Of a stretch of DNA of 64,000 bases, positions 7,983-61,148 are shown in pieces. Location: the NCBI GenBank assembly GCA_028697015.1, contig JAQVFW010000001.1:67603-131602 (forward strand), given 5' to 3'. How positions within the stretch are numbered: the first letter of the stretch is position 1; every line of letters begins with the position of its first letter. The DNA comes from Minisyncoccota bacterium (GTDB lineage: Bacteria > Patescibacteriota > Minisyncoccia > Minisyncoccales > GWA2-38-27). A model generated the notes under the pieces. It ran no database searches. It worked only from the letters and a program-made list of their open reading frames with translations, and had not been told where the DNA came from. The position numbers and the translations under genes are program-made.

Positions 7983-8019
7983 AGTTAAAGGGTAAAGATT
8001 GATTAAAAGCATCAAAACA

Positions 8020-50767: not shown

Positions 50768-51694
50768 TTAGATTTTCTCTAAATTTTTTTTGGCTTCTTT
50801 TAATCCTTCAATCCAAATAATTTCTTTGTTTCTCTTAAACCAGGTCATTTGCCTTTTTGCAAAATGTTCTATTTCTTTTTGCAGTTTTTCTATCATTTCA
50901 TCATAAGGCATCTTGCCTTGTAAATAATAAGCGATGTATCTGTATTCAAGACCCAAATCCTCAAGGCGCTTCCACGAAATTCCTTTTTTGTGAAGATTTT
51001 CTACTTCTTTCACCATCCCTTCTCTTAGTCGTTTTTTTAGGCGTTTTGCTATTAATATTTTTTGCTTTTCTTGGCTTTTTTTTATTCCAAATATTAAAGA
51101 ATCGAAAAGAGGATTGTTTTCTTTCTTTGGAATTCTTTTCCCCGTACTTTCTATTATTTCAAGAGCTCTTATAATACGCCTTTTATTGTTCTTATCTATC
51201 TCTTTGGCTCTTCTTTTGTCTTTTTTTTCAAGCATTAAAAAAAGCTCTTTTTTTGTTTTTTGCTCCAATTTTTTTCTTAATTTCCAATCCGGCATAACTT
51301 CCGGGATAGTTGTGTTTTTTATTATTGCATCAACATAAAAACCAGTTCCTCCGACAATAATAGGAATCTTATTTTCTTTATGGAGATTTTCTATTTTTTT
51401 TATTGCTTTTTTCTTATAATCGGCAACAGTAAATATCTTTTTGGGTGATACAATGTCTATTAAATGATGGGGAATTCCTTTTGTCTCTTTCTTTTTTATT
51501 TTACCAGAACCGATATCAAGGCCTTTATATACTTGCCTTGAATCGGCAGATATGATTTCCGCTCCCTTAATATTGAAATGCTTTTTTATTTTTTTCGAAT
51601 TTAAATAAAGACAGATTCCAATTGAAAGGGAAGTTTTTCCCGAAGCGTTTGGCCCGACTATTGCAATTATTTTATTTTTCCAATAAGTCCCCAT
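50768..51694 (-). CDS. miaA: tRNA dimethylallyltransferase
   Basis: P-loop GPNASGKTS, DSRQVYKGLDIGSGK and IVGGTGFY motifs. Confidence 0.9.
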   Translation of the reverse strand: MGTYWKNKIIAIVGPNASGKTSLSIGICLYLNSKKIKKHFNIKGAEIISADSRQVYKGLDIGSGKIKKKETKGIPHHLIDIVSPKKIFTVADYKKKAIKKIENLHKENKIPIIVGGTGFYVDAIIKNTTIPEVMPDWKLRKKLEQKTKKELFLMLEKKDKRRAKEIDKNNKRRIIRALEIIESTGKRIPKKENNPLFDSLIFGIKKSQEKQKILIAKRLKKRLREGMVKEVENLHKKGISWKRLEDLGLEYRYIAYYLQGKMPYDEMIEKLQKEIEHFAKRQMTWFKRNKEIIWIEGLKEAKKNLEKI

Positions 51695-52884
51695 GGCATA
51701 CTTTTTATAATTTTAACTTTTATGAATTTCCCAATAAGGTCTTTTTTTAATGATTCTATTTTTACTGTTTTATAATCTTCAGTTTTTCCCAAATAAAGAC
51801 CGTTTCGTATTGAATTTATAAGCACTGTCACTTCTTTATTAAGATATTTCTTATTTTTTATAAAGCTGTTTTTTTTGATTATCTCATTGAGAATCTCCTC
51901 TCTCCTTTTTTTTTCTTTTAATGAGACATTGTCTTTCAATTCTGCCGCTTTTGTTCCTGGTCTTTCTGAATATCTTGAAATATAGGCCATTTCAAACTTT
52001 ATTTTTTTCAGAGCATCCGCGGTATCCTGAAACTGTTTTTTTGTTTCCGAAGGAAATCCGACAATTATATCCGTTGAAAGAGATATATCTTTTATTTCTT
52101 TTTTGATCATTTGAACAGTTTTTTCATATTGGGAAAAAGTATAAGGCCTGTTCATTTTTTTTAGAATTTTATCGTTTCCCGACTGAAGAGGAAGATTAAG
52201 ATATTTTGAAACTTTTTTTGAATTTTTCATTGCTTCAATTAATTCTTTCGTAAAGTCCTTAGGATGAGAAGATGTAAATTTAAGCCAAAAATCTCCCTTT
52301 AAATTATTTACCGTCTTAAGCAAGGAAGGAAAATTTCTTTCTTTTTTGTCAAAATAGGAATTGACGTTTTGGCCAAGAAGCCAAATTTCTTTATATCCTT
52401 TTTTTATTAGATTTTTCGCCTCTTTAACTATTTCTTCAACCGATCTTGAATATTCCCTCCCTCTTGTATATGGAACGACGCAGTAAGTGCAGAAGTTATT
52501 GCATCCGGTCATAATCGGTATGTATCCAATTGGGAATGAAGAATATGCCGGTTCTATATTTAAAAATTCGGATTTGCTTTTTAAAAATTCCGGAAATTGG
52601 CTTGGCTTTATCACAAAATCAAAAAGCTCTTCAAGTTTTTTTTGGTCTTTTTTTAAAAAACAGCCGGTTAAAATGCTTTTTCCTTTTATTTCCCTTAATT
52701 TAGGAACAAGTCCGTAAACTCTTGTTACGGCCGATTGTCTTACAGAGCACATATTAATAATCACTAAATCTGCTTTTGTTATATCTTTGGTTTTTCTGTA
52801 TTTTTCTTTTTCAAAAAGAGAAGCGATTCTTTGGGAATCGGAGATGTTCATCTGGCAGCCGAAAGTAATTATTGAATATTTCAT
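51667..52884 (-). CDS. miaB: Radical-SAM methylthiotransferase (MiaB-like)
   Basis: N-terminal ITFGCQMN, the radical-SAM cluster motif GCNNFCTYCVVP, a C-terminal TRAM-like region, and adjacency to miaA. Confidence 0.85.
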   Translation of the reverse strand: MKYSIITFGCQMNISDSQRIASLFEKEKYRKTKDITKADLVIINMCSVRQSAVTRVYGLVPKLREIKGKSILTGCFLKKDQKKLEELFDFVIKPSQFPEFLKSKSEFLNIEPAYSSFPIGYIPIMTGCNNFCTYCVVPYTRGREYSRSVEEIVKEAKNLIKKGYKEIWLLGQNVNSYFDKKERNFPSLLKTVNNLKGDFWLKFTSSHPKDFTKELIEAMKNSKKVSKYLNLPLQSGNDKILKKMNRPYTFSQYEKTVQMIKKEIKDISLSTDIIVGFPSETKKQFQDTADALKKIKFEMAYISRYSERPGTKAAELKDNVSLKEKKRREEILNEIIKKNSFIKNKKYLNKEVTVLINSIRNGLYLGKTEDYKTVKIESLKKDLIGKFIKVKIIKSMPWGLIGKIK

Positions 52885-52887
52885 AAA

Positions 52888-54567
52888 TCAATCAAGCATA
52901 GGGCTTTCAAATACAAGTTTTCCTGTTATTTTTCCCTCTTCTTTCATCTTTTTTAATTTTTCCCTTATTTCATTTGAAAGATTAAAACCGTCAAAATAAG
53001 CGTCTCCGTTAAATTTTACATCGTCATCAATAGAGAGTAATGCAACATCGAAAAAGTAAGCATTTCCGTTAAATATCGTTCCTTTTGGGATTGAGGACAA
53101 AGATATGCAGTTATCGAAATTGACATCTTTATTAAATATTGTTCCTTCTGGAATTGATTTAAATTTGGTTTCATTTTGAAGAATGACTCTTCCGTCTATC
53201 ATTATGGGATTTTTTCTTTCGCTTAATACTCTATAGTTTTCAGGATGAAGATCTCCTGTATAAACTTTTGAATCCTCGTTAATATCTGATATTTTTTCAA
53301 CTATTTGTTCTTTTTTACAGTTGAAAATAGTACAGTAGTCGCTTATTTTATCTCTCTTTGATTTTATTTCCTCAATTGCAGGGTCATCGCTAAGTCCGAA
53401 TCCTTCTATTTTTTTTTCTATTTCGTACAAAAAAATCAAATCTTCTTGATTTAATTCTACATTTTCTTTGATTTTTCTTTGCAAATCAGCAAGTTTTCTT
53501 GTATCTTTTTCCTTTTCCATATTCCTTTTTTTATTTTCAAAATCCGATGATTCTAATTTCTCACTTAAAATATTTCCTATATAAGGATCAAGATTTTGTT
53601 CTTCTCCTCTCCCTCTTATTTCTACTATTTTTTTGCCCTTTAATCTGATCGCAATACGAGGAATTGTCGGATTGCCTTTTTCATCATTTGAATAAAAAAC
53701 ATCCAAATCACTGTCTTTTAGATAAAGAGCGGCAGTGTTTTCTCCGGCAATACACCATCCTGTTCCTTTTCCTCTTATTGAATTTGCCAATGTTTCAAAA
53801 TCGTCTTTTTTATATTTTTTCCATACTCCTTCTTTTGTAAGTAAAAGCTCTTCTTGTATCGGGGCTATAAGTTCGTTTGCAAAAGAATAAAGCTCTCTAA
53901 AATTAGCTCCTTGAAGAGACTTTTTAAATTTCTCTTCTTCTTCGGGAGAAATATCGTATTTCAGTTCTATATCCTTTCCCTGCTTTTTTTTATTCAGGGC
54001 GTTTACAATAAATTCTAGGGCTTTTTCATTGATATCGGGAAATTTCTTAACGGTTCCCTTGGAACGAATCGGGAATTTTTTTCTTTTTCCATCATATTCC
54101 TGCATATGAATGATGTCTCTAAAAATCCAGTATTTTAATTCTTTAGGAATATGACTTGAATCATCTGAAATAAAATAATCAATCCATTGCTCAAGGGAAG
54201 CCCTTTGGTCCTTCAATGCTTCTTCAATTTCTTCTCTTTTTATTCTCTCTCTTTCTTCATTGGGAATTCTTTGCCAATTGGATAGTCCTTCTCTGTGACT
54301 TATTATTTTTTCCTGAAAAATAAGATATTCTTTAGGAATATCTTCAAATTTTGTAATATTTTCTTCTAGTATTTTTTCTTTTAATAGATGAAATCCTCTT
54401 TCTTTTTTTGATATTTCTTCTAACCGGGAAAGATAAATATCGATTCTTTTTTCACTATCAAGAGGGTTTTCTCCTTTTTTTCTGACAGCGCGCTCTACGG
54501 GTTTTGAAAAAGCAAGGTCTTTGTATTTCTCTCCTAAAAATTTTTCCATATTTTCTTCAAGATTCAA
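52888..54567 (-). CDS. Hypothetical soluble protein (559 aa), Cys-containing central domain plus C-terminal degenerate repeats
   Basis: A long uninterrupted ORF, 3 nt from each flanking gene, with no TM segment. It has a central GKGTGWCIAGENTA motif and C-terminal repeats (SIPEGTIFNKDVNFDNC / SIPKGTIFNGNAYFFDV / DDVKFNGDAYFDGF). No family is assigned. Confidence 0.6.
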   Translation of the reverse strand: MNLEENMEKFLGEKYKDLAFSKPVERAVRKKGENPLDSEKRIDIYLSRLEEISKKERGFHLLKEKILEENITKFEDIPKEYLIFQEKIISHREGLSNWQRIPNEERERIKREEIEEALKDQRASLEQWIDYFISDDSSHIPKELKYWIFRDIIHMQEYDGKRKKFPIRSKGTVKKFPDINEKALEFIVNALNKKKQGKDIELKYDISPEEEEKFKKSLQGANFRELYSFANELIAPIQEELLLTKEGVWKKYKKDDFETLANSIRGKGTGWCIAGENTAALYLKDSDLDVFYSNDEKGNPTIPRIAIRLKGKKIVEIRGRGEEQNLDPYIGNILSEKLESSDFENKKRNMEKEKDTRKLADLQRKIKENVELNQEDLIFLYEIEKKIEGFGLSDDPAIEEIKSKRDKISDYCTIFNCKKEQIVEKISDINEDSKVYTGDLHPENYRVLSERKNPIMIDGRVILQNETKFKSIPEGTIFNKDVNFDNCISLSSIPKGTIFNGNAYFFDVALLSIDDDVKFNGDAYFDGFNLSNEIREKLKKMKEEGKITGKLVFESPMLD

Positions 54568-54570
54568 AAA

Positions 54571-56175
54571 CTAGTATATTTTTTCTTTTTTTTCTTTTAT
54601 AAAATATCTCCACTGTTCGACAAATTCAATAAACAGCATAAAAGGCATGTCTATTAAGGCGCTAAAGAAAACAGATATTACATTGTATCTTTCCCATTTT
54701 GACGCCAGCCATTTTCCAAGATGAATAATGGGAGCCGATAGGGAGTCCAAAAATACGAAATAAAGCTGTTCTTTTTCTTCTATCATGTGGAGCTCTTTTG
54801 CTCTTTCTTTTATTTTTGCTCCTGCAAAAGCTATAAGCGAGAGGAATATTATAAATATGATATAAGAGAAGGGAGGGAAGCTTATTTTATAAAGGCCGTA
54901 GAATATTAATCCGACTATAAGAATAAATATTACAAAATAAACAAGATCTATTATTGCTCCGAAAAAGGCCCCTCTTTTTTTGAAGAATTTTATTTCGTAA
55001 ATATCTTCTTTTTCCTTTTTATAAACCGCCTTTATTACTTCTGAAATTACTATATCTAAATTTTCTTTAGGAGGCAGTTTTATTGTTAAAACCAAAAAGG
55101 CCATAAGAAAGGTTGGAACAAAAATATCTATTATTATTGAATAAGGATTGAATATTCCAATTATTTTGGTGAGAGGTATTTCTATTGCAAGGAGAACGAC
55201 AATATTTGTAAGAAATATGGATAAAGTAGAATAAAAAGCAGCTCTTCTCATTCTTGACTTTAAGGTTTTAAAACGTTCGTTATATGATTTTCTGATCATT
55301 GTTTCTAATTTTTCCGGATTTTCAATTTCTTCTCTTATTTGCAAAGGGTTTGATTTTATAATGTCTCCAATTATAAGGTAGACAGTATTGTATTTTTTGC
55401 AAACGCGATAAAATTTATCTCCCAGTGGATGCTCCAAAGAAGCAAGTAGCATCTCTTTTATCGAATGTATTTTTTCCCTGATTTCTTCCAATTCCTTTTT
55501 ATTTAAATTTTTCCAGTTTGGATATTTATAATTTAAAAGATGATAGCTTATAACCGGATTGTCGAGATTAAAAAGAGCTCTTTGAACGGCTATATATATC
55601 TGAATATTTTCTTCTTCCTTTGTTATGGGATTTATGGCAATAACTCCTTGGTTAAGAACAATTTTTCTTTTCATTGCCAAAAACATATAATTAATTAATG
55701 CTCTTTCTTTTATAGACGGGATTAAAATTTCTTCTATTTCGCAAGCGGCTATTGAAAATAAAAAGTTATAGAAACGGAGATTTTCTTCTTTATATTTTTT
55801 AAGTATGAAGAGATATTTATTTATGGCAATTTGGACTTCCTCTATTTTACTTTCTTTTATATTATCGTTTGGAAAATGCCCTCCCCGTATTAATTCCAGA
55901 ACCAATGGTTCTGCTTCAATCGGCGTTTCGTCTATTTCTCCGTTTATAATATCAAAGTTCGCAAAGACCCTTCTTTTTAAAGCTCTTTCTGTTGCATTTC
56001 TTCTTAAGAGGTGCTCTTCTTTCCAATCTATTATTCCTCTTATTTTTTCATAAAAACTTGCAACCCTTGAGGCCGCTTCATCAACGTGAATTGTTCCTGT
56101 TTTTTTCTCTTCAAGGCCTTTTCTCCACCTTTCATTTATATCTATTAAATTTTGAGCGTCTTTTGACAGTTCCAT
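54571..56175 (-). CDS. Hypothetical polytopic membrane protein (534 aa) with ~300-aa cytoplasmic N-terminal domain
   Basis: The start abuts the thrS stop with 0-nt spacing. The C-terminal half has at least 4 hydrophobic helices (for example LSIFLTNIVVLLAIEI, FFGAIIDLVYFVIFILIVGLIFYGL). No family is assigned. Confidence 0.6.
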   Translation of the reverse strand: MELSKDAQNLIDINERWRKGLEEKKTGTIHVDEAASRVASFYEKIRGIIDWKEEHLLRRNATERALKRRVFANFDIINGEIDETPIEAEPLVLELIRGGHFPNDNIKESKIEEVQIAINKYLFILKKYKEENLRFYNFLFSIAACEIEEILIPSIKERALINYMFLAMKRKIVLNQGVIAINPITKEEENIQIYIAVQRALFNLDNPVISYHLLNYKYPNWKNLNKKELEEIREKIHSIKEMLLASLEHPLGDKFYRVCKKYNTVYLIIGDIIKSNPLQIREEIENPEKLETMIRKSYNERFKTLKSRMRRAAFYSTLSIFLTNIVVLLAIEIPLTKIIGIFNPYSIIIDIFVPTFLMAFLVLTIKLPPKENLDIVISEVIKAVYKKEKEDIYEIKFFKKRGAFFGAIIDLVYFVIFILIVGLIFYGLYKISFPPFSYIIFIIFLSLIAFAGAKIKERAKELHMIEEKEQLYFVFLDSLSAPIIHLGKWLASKWERYNVISVFFSALIDMPFMLFIEFVEQWRYFIKEKKEKIY

Positions 56176-57903
56176 TTATTTTTTTGATTTTATCTCTTCT
56201 TCTATTTTTTCAACAAAACTATTTAAGGACATTTCCCCTTTGTTCCCTTCGGTTCTTTTTCTTACGCTTATTGAATTTTCTTTTTTTTCTTTTTCTCCTA
56301 TGACAAGAATATAGGGGATTTTGTTCATCTCCGCTTCTCTTATTTTTTTTGAAATTGTATTGTTTTCAATATCTATTTCAACGCGTATGTCCTTACTTGA
56401 AAGAGCGTCTTTTACCTTCTTTGCATAATCCATACAGGAATCGTTTATTGTTAAAATCTTTACTTGAACAGGGGAGAGCCAAAGAGGAAACGCGCCGCCA
56501 AAATGTTCTATGATTAAAGCAATAAATCTTTCATAGGAACCGAGTATTGCTCTATGAACCATAACAGGAGGGATCTCTTTACCTTTTTCACTGATATAGG
56601 AAAGATTAAATCTTTTTGGAGTGGCAAAATCAATTTGAACTGTTGGGATTTGAATTTCTTTTCCGAGAGCGTCTTTAAACATGAAATCAATTTTTGGACC
56701 GTAAAGAGCTGCTTCTCCTTCTTGTTTTTCTGCTTTTAAATTCATTTCCTTACAAACCTCTCCAAGTATTTTTTCGCATTTTTTCCAATCTTTTTCTTCT
56801 CCTATGTATTTTTCTGGATGTTTATAATCTCTTAATGCAAGATAAACGGAATGATTTCCCCATAGTCCCAAGGAAGAGTAAAAATCTTTTATTATATTTA
56901 CCATAATCTTAATTTCTTCTTTTACTTGTTCTACCATGCAAAAAGAATGGCCGTCTTCAACTGTTATGGCATATACTCTATTTAATCCTGCGACTTCTCC
57001 TGTTTTTTCCGCTCTATATTGTTTTTCGCTTTCCATATATCTTATGGGAAGGTCTCTATAAGAACGAATTCTTGAGGCGTATATTTGAGTTTGATGAGGA
57101 CACTGGACTGGCTTCATAACAAATTTATGTCCTTTTTCAGAAGAGACATGAAAAAGCTCGTCTTTGAATTTTTGTTTATGGCCTGATATTTCGTATAAAT
57201 CAATCTTAGCAAGGTGAGGAGTAATAACTTTCTGAAATCCGTAATTTTTACATATTTTCTCCACTTCTTTCTGAAGCTCTTCTTTAACTATTGTTCCTTT
57301 GGGAGTAAAAAGAGGTAATCCAGGCCCTACAATATCCGAAAAACAAAAAAGATCAAGCTCTTTTCCTAGCTTTCTGTGGTTTCTTTTTTCAGCTTCCTCT
57401 TGCATTTTTATGTGATTTTCCAGTTCTTCTTTCGTTTCAAAAGCAAGTCCGTAAATGCGAGTAAGCATTTTGTTTTTCTCGTTTCCTTTAAAATAAGCAC
57501 CGGCAATTCTTGAAATCTTAAAACTTTCAATGTTTATTTCTTTTGTATTTTTTATATGGGGGCCTTCGCAAAGGTCGGTAAATTTTCCAACGGTAAAAAT
57601 AGAAACGTTTTTTCCTTTTATATCATTAATTATTTCCAGCTTATATTTTTGGCCTTTAAAGAGATCATTAGCTTTCTGTTTTGAAATTACCTCTTTTTTA
57701 AAGGGGATATTTTCCTTTATTATTTTTTCCATTTCCATTTCAATTTCAGAAAGGTCTACTTTCAAAGTGCCAAGATCAAAATCGTAATAGAACCCGTTTT
57801 CTATTGCAGGACCCATTCCAAATTTTACTTTTGGATAGAGATTTTTTACCGCATGCGCCATTATATGCGCAAGGGAATGCCTGATATTTTTAATGTTTGA
57901 CAT
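56176..57903 (-). CDS. thrS: Threonyl-tRNA synthetase lacking the N-terminal TGS domain
   Basis: It starts directly in the editing domain (RHSLAHIMAHAV). It has class II motifs (YRAEKTGEVAGLNRV..., HRAILGSYERF) and is 575 aa long. Confidence 0.95.
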   Translation of the reverse strand: MSNIKNIRHSLAHIMAHAVKNLYPKVKFGMGPAIENGFYYDFDLGTLKVDLSEIEMEMEKIIKENIPFKKEVISKQKANDLFKGQKYKLEIINDIKGKNVSIFTVGKFTDLCEGPHIKNTKEINIESFKISRIAGAYFKGNEKNKMLTRIYGLAFETKEELENHIKMQEEAEKRNHRKLGKELDLFCFSDIVGPGLPLFTPKGTIVKEELQKEVEKICKNYGFQKVITPHLAKIDLYEISGHKQKFKDELFHVSSEKGHKFVMKPVQCPHQTQIYASRIRSYRDLPIRYMESEKQYRAEKTGEVAGLNRVYAITVEDGHSFCMVEQVKEEIKIMVNIIKDFYSSLGLWGNHSVYLALRDYKHPEKYIGEEKDWKKCEKILGEVCKEMNLKAEKQEGEAALYGPKIDFMFKDALGKEIQIPTVQIDFATPKRFNLSYISEKGKEIPPVMVHRAILGSYERFIALIIEHFGGAFPLWLSPVQVKILTINDSCMDYAKKVKDALSSKDIRVEIDIENNTISKKIREAEMNKIPYILVIGEKEKKENSISVRKRTEGNKGEMSLNSFVEKIEEEIKSKK

Positions 57904-57914
57904 GTTTTTTTTAA

Positions 57915-60900
57915 TTATTGGCCTATTATTTCTTGAATTTCGTCCGCTACAACCTGTATTTCTCCGTTCCTGCTGTCTATTTTTCCCAGGACGAATACTA
58001 TTTTATTTTCTTCAATTGCCGCTTTGCTGTTTTCAATAATGGATGGGAAAAGGGTAACATCTATTTTCCCAGTAGGGTCTTCTAGTGTTAGAAACATCAT
58101 TTGCTTTCCGTTTTTAGTGATTATTTTTTTTATCTTTAAAATTATTCCGGCTAGCTTTACTTTTCTATTTATCAAGGAATCGTCTATTTTCGCTATTGAA
58201 AAAGCATTTTTATTAAGGAACTCTTTCATGCTGTCGAGAGGATGAGAAGATATGTAGAGTCCAAGTAATTCTTTTTCCCAAGCAAGCTTTTCTTGGTCTT
58301 TTGCCGGTTCTGAAGGAATAAGGGTAATTTCGCTTTTTAAATTTTGAACTCCAAAAAGGCCGATTTGCCCGTTTGTTTTTGTTTTTGCAGTTTCTCTGGC
58401 CCAAGCAAGGAGGTTTTCTAAATTATACAGTAACTGGTTTCTTTCGGCAAATTTATCGAATGCTCCTGCTTTTATAAGGCTTTCAAATGACTTTTTATTA
58501 AGTTCGCGGGAACTTGTTCTTTCTATAAAATTTCCAATAGATTCGAAAGGGCCGTTCTTTTTTCTTTCTTCCGTTATTATATCTATAATCCCTTCTCCGA
58601 CATTTTTAATTGCCAAAAGGCCAAAAGTTATTTTCTTTTCTTTCGGTATGACGGTGAAGTTTTTTAAGCTTTCGTTGATGTCGGGAGGAAGAACTTCTAT
58701 TCTCATTTTTTTGCACTCGTCTATAAGTATTGCAACTCTTTCCGTATCTGTTTTTTCAGAAGTAAGAAGGGAAGCCATAAATTCAACAGGGTAGTGGGCT
58801 TTAAGATAGGCGGTCTGATAGGCAATCATAGCGTAAGCCGTGCTGTGGCTTTTATTAAAGCCGTAGCTTGCAAAAGGTAAAATCCACTGCCATATTTTTT
58901 CAGCTGTTTTCTTCGGAATATTGTTTTTAACACAGCCGTTAATGAATTTTTCTTCTTGAGCTCCAAGAAGCTCTTTTATTTTTTTACCGACAGCTTTTCT
59001 TAAAACGTCTGCTTCTGAAAGGGAAAATCCCGCAAGTTCCTGGGCAATTTTCATTAATTGCTCTTGATAAACCATTATGCCATAGGTTTTTTCCAAGATG
59101 GGCTTTAATTTTAAGTGAAGATAAGTTATTTCTTCTTCTTTATTTTTTCTTTTTATGTAGGAAGGAATAAGTTCCATCGGGCCTGGACGATAAAGGGCTA
59201 TTAAAACTTCGATGTCCTCAAATCTTGTAGGAGCCATTTCCTTGAGGTATCTTTTCATTCCTCCGCTTTCCAGCTGGAAAATTCCCGTGCTTTCAGCGTT
59301 TCTTAATATCTGGTATGTTTCTTTGTCGTCATCGGGTATTTTTTCAATGTCTATCTTTTCATTTCTTATAACATAAATGCGGGCTAGCGTATCTTCAATA
59401 ATGGTAAGATTTTTTAATCCTAAAAAATCCATTTTAAGCAGGCCTAGTGATTCTACAGAGTGCATTTCATACTGAGTTACTATTGTTTTTTCATTTTGCG
59501 TTGGCCTTTGGAGAGGAACATAATTTGTCAGAGGTTCCGGGGAAATTACTACTCCGCAGGCATGGGTTGAAGCATGTCTTATTACTCCTTCAAGTTTTTT
59601 GGCGATATCTATAAGCCGTTTTGCCTGCTCGTCGCTATTATATATTTCTTTAAACTCATCCACTTTTTTAAGAGCCATCTCAAGATTAAATCCGAAAGGA
59701 ATCATCTTTGCAAGTTTGTCGCAGTAAAAATATGGATATCCCAACACTCTTCCTACGTCCCTTATAACAGCTCTTGCCGCCATGGTTCCAAAAGTGATTA
59801 TTTGGGCGACTTTATCTCTTCCGTATTTTTCCGCGGCATAGTTTATTACCTCGTCTCTTCTTCTGTCTGTAAAATCAAGGTCAATATCGGGAAGCCCTGC
59901 AACTCTTCCCGGATTTAAAAACCTTTCGAAAATAAGACCGTGTTTTATTGGGTCAACATTTGTAATGCCAAGGACATAAGAAACAAGAGAACCGGCGGCA
60001 GAACCTCTTCCTGGGCCTACTACTATTCTTTTACTTTTTGCCCAGTTAACCAGGTCTTGGACAATAAGAAAGTAAGAAGAAAACTTTAATTCTTTTATAA
60101 CGGAAAGTTCGTATTTTAACCGCTGTTTTATTTCATTTGTTATCTCTTCCTTGTAGCGTTTTTTAAGCCCGTTGCAGCATAATTCTTCTAAATATTGCTC
60201 TTCTGTTTTCCCGTTTGGAACTTCAAATTTAGGGAGGCGGGAATTGCCAAGCTCAAATTCAAAATCGCACATATTTTTAATTTTTTCCGTATTTTCAATT
60301 GCCTCGGGAACATCTTTAAACGCCTCTGTCATTTCTTGTGGGGATTTAAGAGAAAAGTCCTCGTTTTTCATCGTGAGGCGCTCGGAATCGTTTATATCCG
60401 CTCCAGTGTTTATAAGCATTAAAATATCTTGGGCTTCGGCGTCTTCTTTTTTTAAATAATGACTATCTGCCGTTGCTACTATTGGAATTTTTGATTCTTT
60501 TGAAAAATCAATCAGAAAATCATTAACTTTTTTTTGTTCCGGAATGTTTGGATGGTGCTGTATTTCCAGGAAAAAATTATCTTTCCCAAATGTTTTTTGC
60601 CATTTTAGCGCCATTTCTTTGGCTTCTTTATGCTTATTTGAAATAATCAGCCGGGCGATTTTTCCCTGAATGCATCCAGATAAAACTATAAGCCCTTCTT
60701 TGTGTTTTTCTAAGAGGTCTTCGTCGATTCTTGGCTTATAATAAAAACCGTCAAGATGAGCTTTTGTAATAAGATTGACTAGGTTTTTATATCCTTCTTT
60801 GTTTTTTACAAGAAGAACTACATGGTATCTTTTATGGTCTATATTCGGCCTTTTCTGCTCCATCTTTTCGTGGGAAAGATAAAGTTCGGCTCCGATTATC

Positions 60901-61082
60901 GGCTTTATTCCTTTCTTTTTTGCTTCCTTGTAAAATTCAACAGCTCCATAAAGAACACCATGGTCAGTAAGGGCAATAGAGTCCATTCCTAATTTTTTGA
61001 CATGGTCTACAAGGTCGCCTATCTTAGATAACCCGTCAAGGAGAGAATAATGGCTGTGGACGTGCAAATGAGTGAATTTCAT
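57915..61082 (-). CDS. dnaE: DNA polymerase III alpha subunit (DnaE type)
   Basis: The PHP domain start MKFTHLHVHSHYSLLDG uses the ATG at 61082. Also seen are GPGRGSAAGSLVSYVLGIT, DIDLDF and a C-terminal OB fold. The 12 upstream codons in the track ORF are probably not translated. Confidence 0.95.
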   Translation of the reverse strand: MKFTHLHVHSHYSLLDGLSKIGDLVDHVKKLGMDSIALTDHGVLYGAVEFYKEAKKKGIKPIIGAELYLSHEKMEQKRPNIDHKRYHVVLLVKNKEGYKNLVNLITKAHLDGFYYKPRIDEDLLEKHKEGLIVLSGCIQGKIARLIISNKHKEAKEMALKWQKTFGKDNFFLEIQHHPNIPEQKKVNDFLIDFSKESKIPIVATADSHYLKKEDAEAQDILMLINTGADINDSERLTMKNEDFSLKSPQEMTEAFKDVPEAIENTEKIKNMCDFEFELGNSRLPKFEVPNGKTEEQYLEELCCNGLKKRYKEEITNEIKQRLKYELSVIKELKFSSYFLIVQDLVNWAKSKRIVVGPGRGSAAGSLVSYVLGITNVDPIKHGLIFERFLNPGRVAGLPDIDLDFTDRRRDEVINYAAEKYGRDKVAQIITFGTMAARAVIRDVGRVLGYPYFYCDKLAKMIPFGFNLEMALKKVDEFKEIYNSDEQAKRLIDIAKKLEGVIRHASTHACGVVISPEPLTNYVPLQRPTQNEKTIVTQYEMHSVESLGLLKMDFLGLKNLTIIEDTLARIYVIRNEKIDIEKIPDDDKETYQILRNAESTGIFQLESGGMKRYLKEMAPTRFEDIEVLIALYRPGPMELIPSYIKRKNKEEEITYLHLKLKPILEKTYGIMVYQEQLMKIAQELAGFSLSEADVLRKAVGKKIKELLGAQEEKFINGCVKNNIPKKTAEKIWQWILPFASYGFNKSHSTAYAMIAYQTAYLKAHYPVEFMASLLTSEKTDTERVAILIDECKKMRIEVLPPDINESLKNFTVIPKEKKITFGLLAIKNVGEGIIDIITEERKKNGPFESIGNFIERTSSRELNKKSFESLIKAGAFDKFAERNQLLYNLENLLAWARETAKTKTNGQIGLFGVQNLKSEITLIPSEPAKDQEKLAWEKELLGLYISSHPLDSMKEFLNKNAFSIAKIDDSLINRKVKLAGIILKIKKIITKNGKQMMFLTLEDPTGKIDVTLFPSIIENSKAAIEENKIVFVLGKIDSRNGEIQVVADEIQEIIGQ

Positions 61083-61148
61083 AGTTATTATTCTACTTTT
61101 AAAGAGGGCTATAGTCAATAACCCGTTCTTATTCTATAATACCCTATT

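Follow-up and report, generated by a model that had tools for sequence, protein, structure and literature searches.

Genes X and Y between thrS and miaB in a Minisyncoccota genome: a conserved membrane protein and the occupant of a variable slot

The DNA discussed here is a stretch of 64,000 nucleotides (nt) from a Minisyncoccota bacterium (contig JAQVFW010000001.1 of GenBank assembly GCA_028697015.1, positions 67,603 to 131,602), which is called the window and is numbered from its first letter. On the minus strand of the window two large genes, here named X and Y, lie between thrS and miaB. An earlier account made from the letters alone, called here the sequence-only reading, had suggested that they form an important membrane-associated pair embedded in an essential operon. 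Comparison with related loci shows, as far as sequence and gene order can tell, that X and Y are evolutionarily independent.

The gene string and the interval between X and miaB

The genes were taken from the list of open reading frames (ORFs) and, for all but X and Y, also from Pfam.

54571-56175, minus strand: gene X, 534 amino acids (aa), a conserved membrane protein of Patescibacteria
52888-54567, minus strand: gene Y, 559 aa from a TTG codon, probably 553 aa from the ATG at 54549
57915-61118, minus strand: dnaE
56176-57903, minus strand: thrS
51667-52884, minus strand: miaB
50768-51694, minus strand: miaA
56176-61118, minus strand: dnaE with thrS, the upstream neighbours conserved for X within its own clade (Pfam)
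50768-52884, minus strand: miaB with miaA, the conserved downstream neighbours (Pfam), the X-to-miaB interval being a variable slot

The six minus-strand genes are packed as tightly as the sequence-only reading had described them. Their ORF coordinates give spacers of 11, 0, 3 and 3 nt and an overlap of 28 nt between miaB and miaA, and the identity of the neighbours was confirmed by Pfam. The longest ORF of Y opens with TTG. Since homologues open near the peptide 'ME..FL', and a 99%-identical protein (P0121) has 553 aa, the ATG at 54549 is the likely start of Y, and the spacer between X and Y would then be 21 nt. The start of miaB is ambiguous as well (window 52848-52884; L194 1727-1763). Its longest ORF, of 405 aa, begins 3 nt past the stop codon of Y; in an independent assembly the gene is called 11 codons later, with 394 aa, and the Y-miaB spacer would be 36 nt. 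The Logan assembly SRR22315508 is 99.4% identical to, and colinear with, window positions 54613-49887, which include the 3′ end of X, Y, miaB, miaA and gatB. Because this independent assembly reproduces both the X-Y and the Y-miaB junctions, they are genuine and do not result from a chimera. Promoter-like sites inside the gene string are in no excess over chance. Terminator-like sites number 16, about twice the mean of 8.7 ± 3.1 in shuffled sequence, and every one lies within coding sequence; between the genes there is no terminator or promoter signal above chance. Co-transcription of the string is plausible, judging from its layout.

Loci anchored on X were collected from 80 species-representative genomes, and 12 further contigs came from exact-protein look-ups, giving 92 in all. 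When the 91 loci other than the window were searched with Y (tblastn, E ≤ 1e-3), no match was obtained, even in the closest relatives. The search from the other side gave the same answer: no X, thrS or miaB was found near Y homologues in seven Y-family loci (by tblastn for L007-L012, by ORF layout only for L180/L181). Adjacency in relatives was the check on which the sequence-only reading had staked its functional pair in advance, and with Y in none of the other 91 X loci that claim fails.

The distance from X to miaB is bimodal: 25 loci have a gap of ≤108 nt, and another 30 have one of 248-3,838 nt. Long gaps are filled in 35 loci by a DUF5667/Kazal family that is unrelated to Y. This usual occupant of the slot (e.g., L005 8687-10033 and L078 9655-10995) is a protein of about 260-540 aa with a signal peptide and an N-terminal DUF5667, then a long helical stretch rich in charged residues, and Cys-rich modules of the Kazal type at the C-terminus. 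In the closest relatives of the window, in which X is 75%, 74% and 62% identical, miaB follows X after 527, 235 and 31 nt, respectively. These loci show that the X-miaB interval is a variable slot, which is empty, or holds a DUF5667/Kazal gene (most often), or holds Y in the window lineage only. The sequence-only reading had also suggested that the two genes are important because they are embedded in an essential operon, an argument that for Y is undone by relatives in which the slot is empty or otherwise filled. The GC content of Y is 0.308, and its GC content at third codon positions (GC3) and its codon usage resemble those of the neighbouring genes. A foreign origin from a distant donor was rejected on this native-like composition. 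Since GC, GC3 and codon usage match those of the neighbours, Y has probably been relocated within the lineage or acquired from a close relative.

Gene X, a membrane protein of Patescibacteria

Homologues of X are numerous. At E ≤ 1e-3 there were 1,136, the best 120 of which are all full-length and at least 51% identical. An exhaustive profile search gave 1,021 clusters at 50% identity, nearly all of 515-580 aa, and the gene was found in 296 species genomes with two peptide patterns only. These results show a vertically inherited family of one architecture in Patescibacteria (Nealsonbacteria, Staskawiczbacteria and Paceibacterota-type genomes).

Within the clade of the window the gene block is nearly invariant, with rnhB on one side, gatB on the other, and dnaE-thrS-X-(slot)-miaB-miaA between them. 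In 70 of the 77 loci with sufficient sequence thrS precedes X by ≤200 nt, and a co-directional miaB follows it in 55 of 58. Over the 80 species-level loci, X has a median identity of 51.7% to the window, to be compared with 47.1% for thrS, 52.8% for miaB, 54.7% for miaA, 46.9% for rnhB, 61.4% for gatB and 65.5% for dnaE. Measured in this way, X is shown to evolve at housekeeping rates, as slowly as the genes around it.

The distant branches of the family have other neighbours. A divergent subfamily, about 28-30% identical to X, was obtained in a metagenome scan with a 7-sequence alignment (L100-L179), and in none of these 80 loci are thrS, miaB, miaA or dnaE found within 7 kb. The next gene encodes a TP_methylase of the RsmI type in 65 of the 80, followed by MetRS and CvpA. 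Upstream there is a 75-aa protein with two transmembrane (TM) segments or a lipoprotein, and nusG-rplK-rplA lie upstream on the opposite strand. This neighbourhood, different from that of the window clade, is conserved to the same degree. In a still different context, the distant relative P0349 (599 aa; L099 5801-9800) lies 360 nt downstream of dxr-ispD, with secE-nusG-rplK-rplA after it. This isoprenoid-pathway (methylerythritol phosphate) setting was not repeated in other loci, and the Foldseek matches of X to terpene synthases, described below, are non-significant. Because distant branches have other neighbours, the thrS/miaB linkage of X represents inherited gene order and not a functional module. 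The linkage of X and Y to thrS and miaB across bacteria of the candidate phyla radiation (CPR) thus holds for X within its own clade and does not hold for Y, which is not part of the block. As to the earlier view that X is important and lineage-specific, it is indeed a conserved, lineage-specific membrane protein; its linkage to thrS and miaB is lost in distant members and is a matter of synteny only.

The protein is divided into two domains.

55246-56175, minus strand: X residues 1-310, cytoplasmic all-helical domain (AF2, alignments, hydropathy and charge)
54574-55245, minus strand: X residues 311-534, membrane domain with four firm TM helices (AF2, alignment, hydropathy and charge)

An AF2 model built from a 33-sequence alignment is helical throughout, with a mean predicted local distance difference test score (pLDDT) of 77 and a predicted template modelling score (pTM) of 0.77. 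Hydropathy, charge and the model place TM1 at residues 311-339, TM2 at 344-363, TM3 at 403-430 and TM4 at 435-459. On the outside, TM1 and TM2, and likewise TM3 and TM4, are joined by 4 residues each; residues 364-402 form a basic cytoplasmic loop. Residues 471-520 make up a hydrophobic or amphipathic hairpin that is modelled with low confidence, the total being put at 4-6 TM helices, and the C-terminal tail is rich in Lys. The sequence-only reading, which had given X a cytoplasmic helical domain of about 300 aa followed by at least four TM helices, agrees well with these findings. With this layout and such short outside loops, nearly all of the hydrophilic mass lies on the cytoplasmic side, and the topology appears to be N-in/C-in with almost no extracellular surface.

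A conserved Arg/Lys-rich helix-loop-helix, YEKIR..D[WY]KEEHLLR..ER.LKRR, is found in the soluble domain, and in the model a long helix connects this domain to TM1. Comparison of 44 relatives, some as distant as 27% identity, leaves these residues invariant: Y42, E43, R46, R68, D205, E332, P334, P368, N372, Y413, P482, G487 and N498. Conserved polar or kink-forming residues within the membrane include E332-x-P334, N350, P368 and N372.

The inability of the sequence-only reading to place either X or Y in a known family was borne out by searches of Pfam, NCBIfam, PHROGs, PADLOC and PDB. X had no match in these collections. Pfam run on all members of the X alignment and NCBIfam run on 44 diverse X relatives gave no consistent match, and the cluster names of distant relatives were uninformative. 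Sequence searches of PDB with X and Y, as single sequences and as three profiles, were also negative. The comparison of predicted structures, which had been proposed together with the Pfam and PDB searches, gave no significant match for X or Y; Foldseek searches of the two models against PDB returned nothing below E = 0.6, and the best for the soluble domain of X, at E = 0.65, is not significant. No likeness to an RNA- or ribosome-binding fold was found in the domains of X.

Two candidates for X were considered and rejected. A class I terpenoid synthase/prenyltransferase fold for the N-terminal domain had a Foldseek E of 0.65, a probability <0.1, poor TM-scores and a root-mean-square deviation of 17-19 Å; the DDxxD motif is absent, and E43 and D205 are the sole acidic residues in the domain that are invariant throughout the family. 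A resemblance to CPBP proteases through an 'EExxxR' motif was dismissed because the stretch that contains it is hydrophilic and lies outside the membrane.

Gene Y and the targets of diversity-generating retroelements

Y has no TM segment or signal peptide, and K+R and D+E make up 18% and 20% of its residues, respectively. The earlier description of a soluble, highly charged protein with a central Cys motif is correct, and Cys272 of that motif (codon at 53752-53754) is invariant. Two of its parts are listed here.

53533-53904, minus strand: Y residues 222-345, conserved alpha/beta core with a four-strand sheet and helices, pLDDT about 90
52984-53154, minus strand: Y residues 472-528, three degenerate repeats resembling leucine-rich repeats (LRR), from repeat positions and comparison with homologues

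The model is confident over residues 1-460, where helices surround a sheet of four strands, and of low confidence over the last 100 residues. The best-conserved part of the family is the motif GKGTGWC...PRIAIR...EIRG..QN, within residues 266-325; across 34 sequences T269, G270, C272, R304, E316 and G319 are invariant. A GNAT/MYST acetyltransferase fold for the core was rejected. Its best E in a Foldseek search of PDB was 0.84, with probability ≤0.3 and a query TM-score ≤0.14, and the defining motifs of GNAT/MYST proteins are absent.

The three degenerate C-terminal repeats noted in the sequence-only reading lie at residues 472, 493 and 517, a period of 21-24, in a region where the pLDDT is <50. 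They are clearer in P0122, a homologue of the same architecture with BspA-type LRR units in the same place, and other members of the family have regular LRR-like arrays of 20 residues (P0122, P0169, P0173, P0232 and P0239 were compared). The tail of Y resembles BspA-type LRR (PF13306) in its three units, recognized by eye, with a period of 21-24 and a pattern like F.g/nC.sL..IP.gt.F; it differs in having no more than three units, all degenerate, in a part of the model that is of low confidence, and in lacking a significant match in Pfam or PDB. Weak LRR matches were seen with PDB 8z5u (E = 0.39, Y) and with Pfam LRR_5 in one family member (E = 0.047). Y had no significant match in Pfam, NCBIfam, PHROGs, PADLOC or PDB, LRR_5 (PF13306) included, and Pfam on all members of the Y alignment gave no consistent one.

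There were 181 homologues of Y, 32-49% identical and mostly of 610-650 aa. The family is widespread in Patescibacteria and unstable in its genomic position. An N-terminal region of about 460 aa is common to its members and is joined to a C-terminal binding module that is exchangeable. Their genes are found after parB, between clpP and rny, after ftsZ, and after CarS-like lipid genes, there before a diversity-generating retroelement (DGR). In three loci (L009 7001-10764, L180 5983-9814 and L181 5971-10008) the Y homologue carries at its 3′ end a variable region (VR) of 110-134 nt. The template repeat (TR) lies 430-490 nt downstream of the VR, followed by bAvd on the minus strand and a reverse transcriptase (RT). 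The mismatches between VR and TR fall at template adenines in 19 of 20 cases in L009, 24 of 25 in L180 and 19 of 21 in L181. In L009 a copy of the last 129 nt of the gene, 84% identical, lies 469 nt downstream, with bAvd and an RT gene after it. In L180 and L181, which come from IMG/VR contigs carrying an unchecked 'viral' label, RVT_1 and bAvd were confirmed by Pfam. The sequences of these three loci show that these family members are bona fide DGR targets. Since VR/TR/RT cassettes occur in three independent loci, the usual C-terminal domain of the Y family is a binding module diversified by a DGR.

These hallmarks, present in L009, L180 and L181, are missing from the Y of the window. No RT or Avd was found within the 64 kb (best E = 0.42), nor any TR-like copy of the 3′ region of Y. 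The LRR-like tail of this Y, and of a few relatives, may represent an alternative binding module that works without a DGR. DGR targets of CPR bacteria have been described as lacking recognizable domains or TM segments (Roux et al., 2021, PMC8144416, clade 2). The family members with DGRs resemble such targets (PMC5758913, category g; PMC8144416, clade 2) in having a C-terminal VR, a downstream TR, bAvd and RT, and equally in having no TM segments or recognizable domains. In contrast, the Y of the window has no VR-type C-terminal domain, TR, RT or Avd, and LRR-like repeats stand in their place.

The core of Y is also found in a phage-type protein. A 3,290-aa ORF with LPD38 (L182 121-9993; IMGVR_UViG_3300011339_000259) matches Y over residues 268-345 only. 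LPD38 is a marker of the 'large polyvalent proteins' of phages. The ORF contains an HExxH-like motif, 'LHEGVHA', and an unannotated Y-type Cys core, …GTGWCTAGENTA…DFYVYY…VAVRM…GEVRG…. A tblastn search of 50,697 phage records with the Y core gave no match.

A more distant relation may exist to the PcfJ-like domain (PF14284), whose archetype is PcfJ of the Enterococcus faecalis plasmid pCF10 and which occurs in many Herelleviridae and other phages. We know of no function for PcfJ, and no solved structure of it surfaced in the PDB searches made with Y. When the model of Y was compared with BFVD by Foldseek, PcfJ-like proteins took ranks 1, 6, 7, 8 and 9, with E of 0.027-0.25 and probabilities of 0.30-0.82. 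Profiles were then aligned with hhalign, that of Y residues 222-345 consisting of 32 sequences and that of the PcfJ domain of 22, namely pCF10 PcfJ, its relatives and ten phage domains. The alignment covers 94 columns with the Cys and strand motifs in register, at P = 0.0075 and a probability of 5%. Its score was reached by 3 of 500 column shuffles and by none of 60 block shuffles, and the statistical support in all stands at P of about 0.006-0.008; with a shallower PcfJ profile E was 0.41. The alignment of the Y family to the lone pCF10 PcfJ sequence was discarded as spurious, since it fell on an N-terminal 'NWCTA'.

The core of Y and PcfJ share the order of their elements: a loop Cys before a helix ([WH]-C-[VIT]-[GA]), a beta strand and a hairpin. 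Both hairpins carry P..[TA][IV][ER] and [EQ].[RQ]G...N. Both also occur in proteins of mobile elements, PcfJ on a conjugative plasmid and the Y core in a phage large polyvalent protein. They differ in that PcfJ has His-Cys where Y has Trp-Cys, and in that the domain is C-terminal in PcfJ proteins and central in Y, inside a conserved region of about 460 aa that PcfJ proteins lack. A PcfJ-like motif upstream of the VR has been reported in DGR targets of CPR bacteria (Wu et al., 2018, PMC5758913). On pCF10 the PcfJ gene overlaps the co-directional gene of a Cas9 inhibitor of the AcrIIA9 family by 10 nt (L183 15874-17984; NC_006827.2 35873-37983), a hint that PcfJ may belong to an anti-defence cluster there.

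The relation of X to Y and their possible roles

Taken together, these results make it probable that X and Y are independent of each other and became neighbours by chance in the window lineage, X as a member of a syntenic membrane family and Y as an accessory gene of the slot. If they were instead a lineage-specific membrane-associated pair, Y would dock on the cytoplasmic domain of X and be tied to the function of the operon. In favour of this, X and Y lie side by side in one direction, 3-21 nt apart, both encode orphans, and a soluble Y could meet the large cytoplasmic surface of X. Such a pair is nevertheless hard to credit when Y is missing beside X in 91 of 91 other loci, including those in which X is 75%, 74% and 62% identical, and when no Y homologue is beside X, thrS or miaB in any of seven loci. 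Many lineages with Y (Moranbacteria, Vogelbacteria, Falkowbacteria, Curtissbacteria, Roizmanbacteria) are, moreover, unlike those of the X loci, although here names were compared and no formal co-occurrence test was made. It is also very improbable that the slot is reserved for an exchangeable partner of X, with Y as a substitute for the DUF5667/Kazal protein. Y does occupy exactly the position that this protein takes in 35 loci, directly after X on the same strand. At 25 of 55 loci, however, close relatives included, the gap is ≤108 nt and there is no gene in it, X exposes only 4-residue loops on the outside, and the divergent X subfamily has neither occupant. The DUF5667/Kazal protein, with its signal peptide, is extracytoplasmic, and Y has no signal peptide or TM segment; for this reason the two cannot share a role. 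An artefact of assembly or binning that joined different organisms at X-Y-miaB would explain why Y is seen in the window alone among all X loci, and its likelihood is negligible in view of the independent assembly SRR22315508, which follows the window colinearly at 99.4% identity from the 3′ end of X through gatB, and of the match in composition between Y and its neighbours.

The neighbours of X raise a further question, whether its function is tied to translation or to the export of proteins. X is found in three unrelated contexts within one or two genes of aminoacyl-tRNA synthetases, RNA-modification enzymes or secE-nusG-rplKA: thrS, miaB and miaA in the clade of the window, rsmI and metG in the divergent subfamily, and secE-nusG-rplK-rplA beside P0349. 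No one partner is kept across the three, however, and no domain of X resembles an RNA- or ribosome-binding fold. Such neighbours are also expected by chance in Patescibacterial genomes, which are small, rich in translation genes and arranged in long co-directional strings. This coupling is therefore improbable, and the same low standing is given to its boldest form, that one large branch of the Patescibacteria has in X a new and practically universal membrane machine, of unsolved fold, whose Arg-rich domain couples it to translation or export. If that were true, the coupling would account for the presence of X near translation genes in three gene orders.

Returning to X and Y as independent genes, a role for X may be sought in its architecture. 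An oligomeric channel or transporter gated by the cytoplasmic domain is the likeliest of the roles considered, if still doubtful, and would agree with the few TM helices per chain, the minimal external loops, the intramembrane Glu, Asn and Pro residues and the long helix that runs into TM1. Membrane proteins of the CorA, MgtE and MscS types offer an analogy only: they too have few TM helices, minimal outside loops, a helix from the cytoplasmic domain to TM1 and intramembrane polar residues, and X has no sequence or fold similarity to them and lacks the GMN signature of CorA. Two other roles, that of an enzyme embedded in the membrane with a phosphorylated compound as its substrate and that of a membrane anchor or scaffold, appear less likely, and equally so.

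Y may be an accessory protein of recognition and effect, in which the C-terminal module would bind a variable ligand and the Cys core would act on it. If the core is distantly related to PcfJ, Y would probably serve in conflict between cells, or between cells and mobile elements, and not in translation. This two-part scheme is put forward tentatively, and the conflict role is suggested by the analogy to other DGR targets and by the presence of the core in phage and plasmid proteins.

Several points weigh against the interpretation of X and Y given here. The tight packing, with spacers of 0-21 nt and no terminator between the genes, implies that X and Y are probably co-transcribed, and a functional link specific to this lineage is conceivable. 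The X loci sampled represent two subfamilies and one outlier, less than the whole family. What is said of function in X and Y is read from architecture, with no fold or family match for any biochemical activity. As for PcfJ, Foldseek against BFVD gave no match at E ≤ 0.001, all the PcfJ E-values being >0.01. PF14284 did not match Y, 34 family members (E ≤ 1), the family consensus, the phage module or the Y core (E ≤ 10), and the positive control, pCF10 PcfJ, was recognized at E = 1e-43. With an hhalign probability of 5% the relation falls below conventional significance, and it is taken as likely on suggestive evidence, not as proven.

Tight packing in a string of housekeeping genes is a tempting proof of partnership, and the inference is wrong here. 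X belongs to a large unannotated family, conserved like the tRNA-modification enzymes, in organisms with genomes of about 600 kb, and may reasonably be proposed to serve an essential membrane function that is specific to its lineage. Hypothetical membrane protein families enriched in CPR bacteria have been catalogued (Méheust et al., 2019, PMC6744442). X is of the same kind in being unannotated, multi-TM and restricted to CPR/Parcubacteria-type genomes, and an attempt to map it to a specific family was unsuccessful. It stands out by its housekeeping-level conservation and by a cytoplasmic domain of 310 aa without a detectable relative. The Y family ties together DGR targets of CPR bacteria, a module of a phage large polyvalent protein and, tentatively, the plasmid PcfJ domain, which had been described apart. 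The PcfJ link, if true, would be a first handle on what the intracellular DGR targets of CPR bacteria do. Neither result alone alters current understanding, X being a conserved hypothetical protein of CPR bacteria and Y a variant, without a DGR, of a kind of protein already known.

Two observations concern the gene upstream of X. In L037, L052 and L066, with X at 8001 to about 9590, X follows the end of dnaE after 15-20 nt, and the locus yielded no thrS; thrS may have been lost from this position or may never have been there. Elsewhere the syntenic thrS genes (L013-L098, compared with window 56176-57903) fall into two classes of identity, a high one of 15 loci (65-75%) and a low one of 51 (40-51%), separated by a gap without any locus. 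In the high and low classes X is 57 and 51% identical, respectively, and dnaE 66% in both, a distribution that suggests two divergent types of thrS or its replacement in place.

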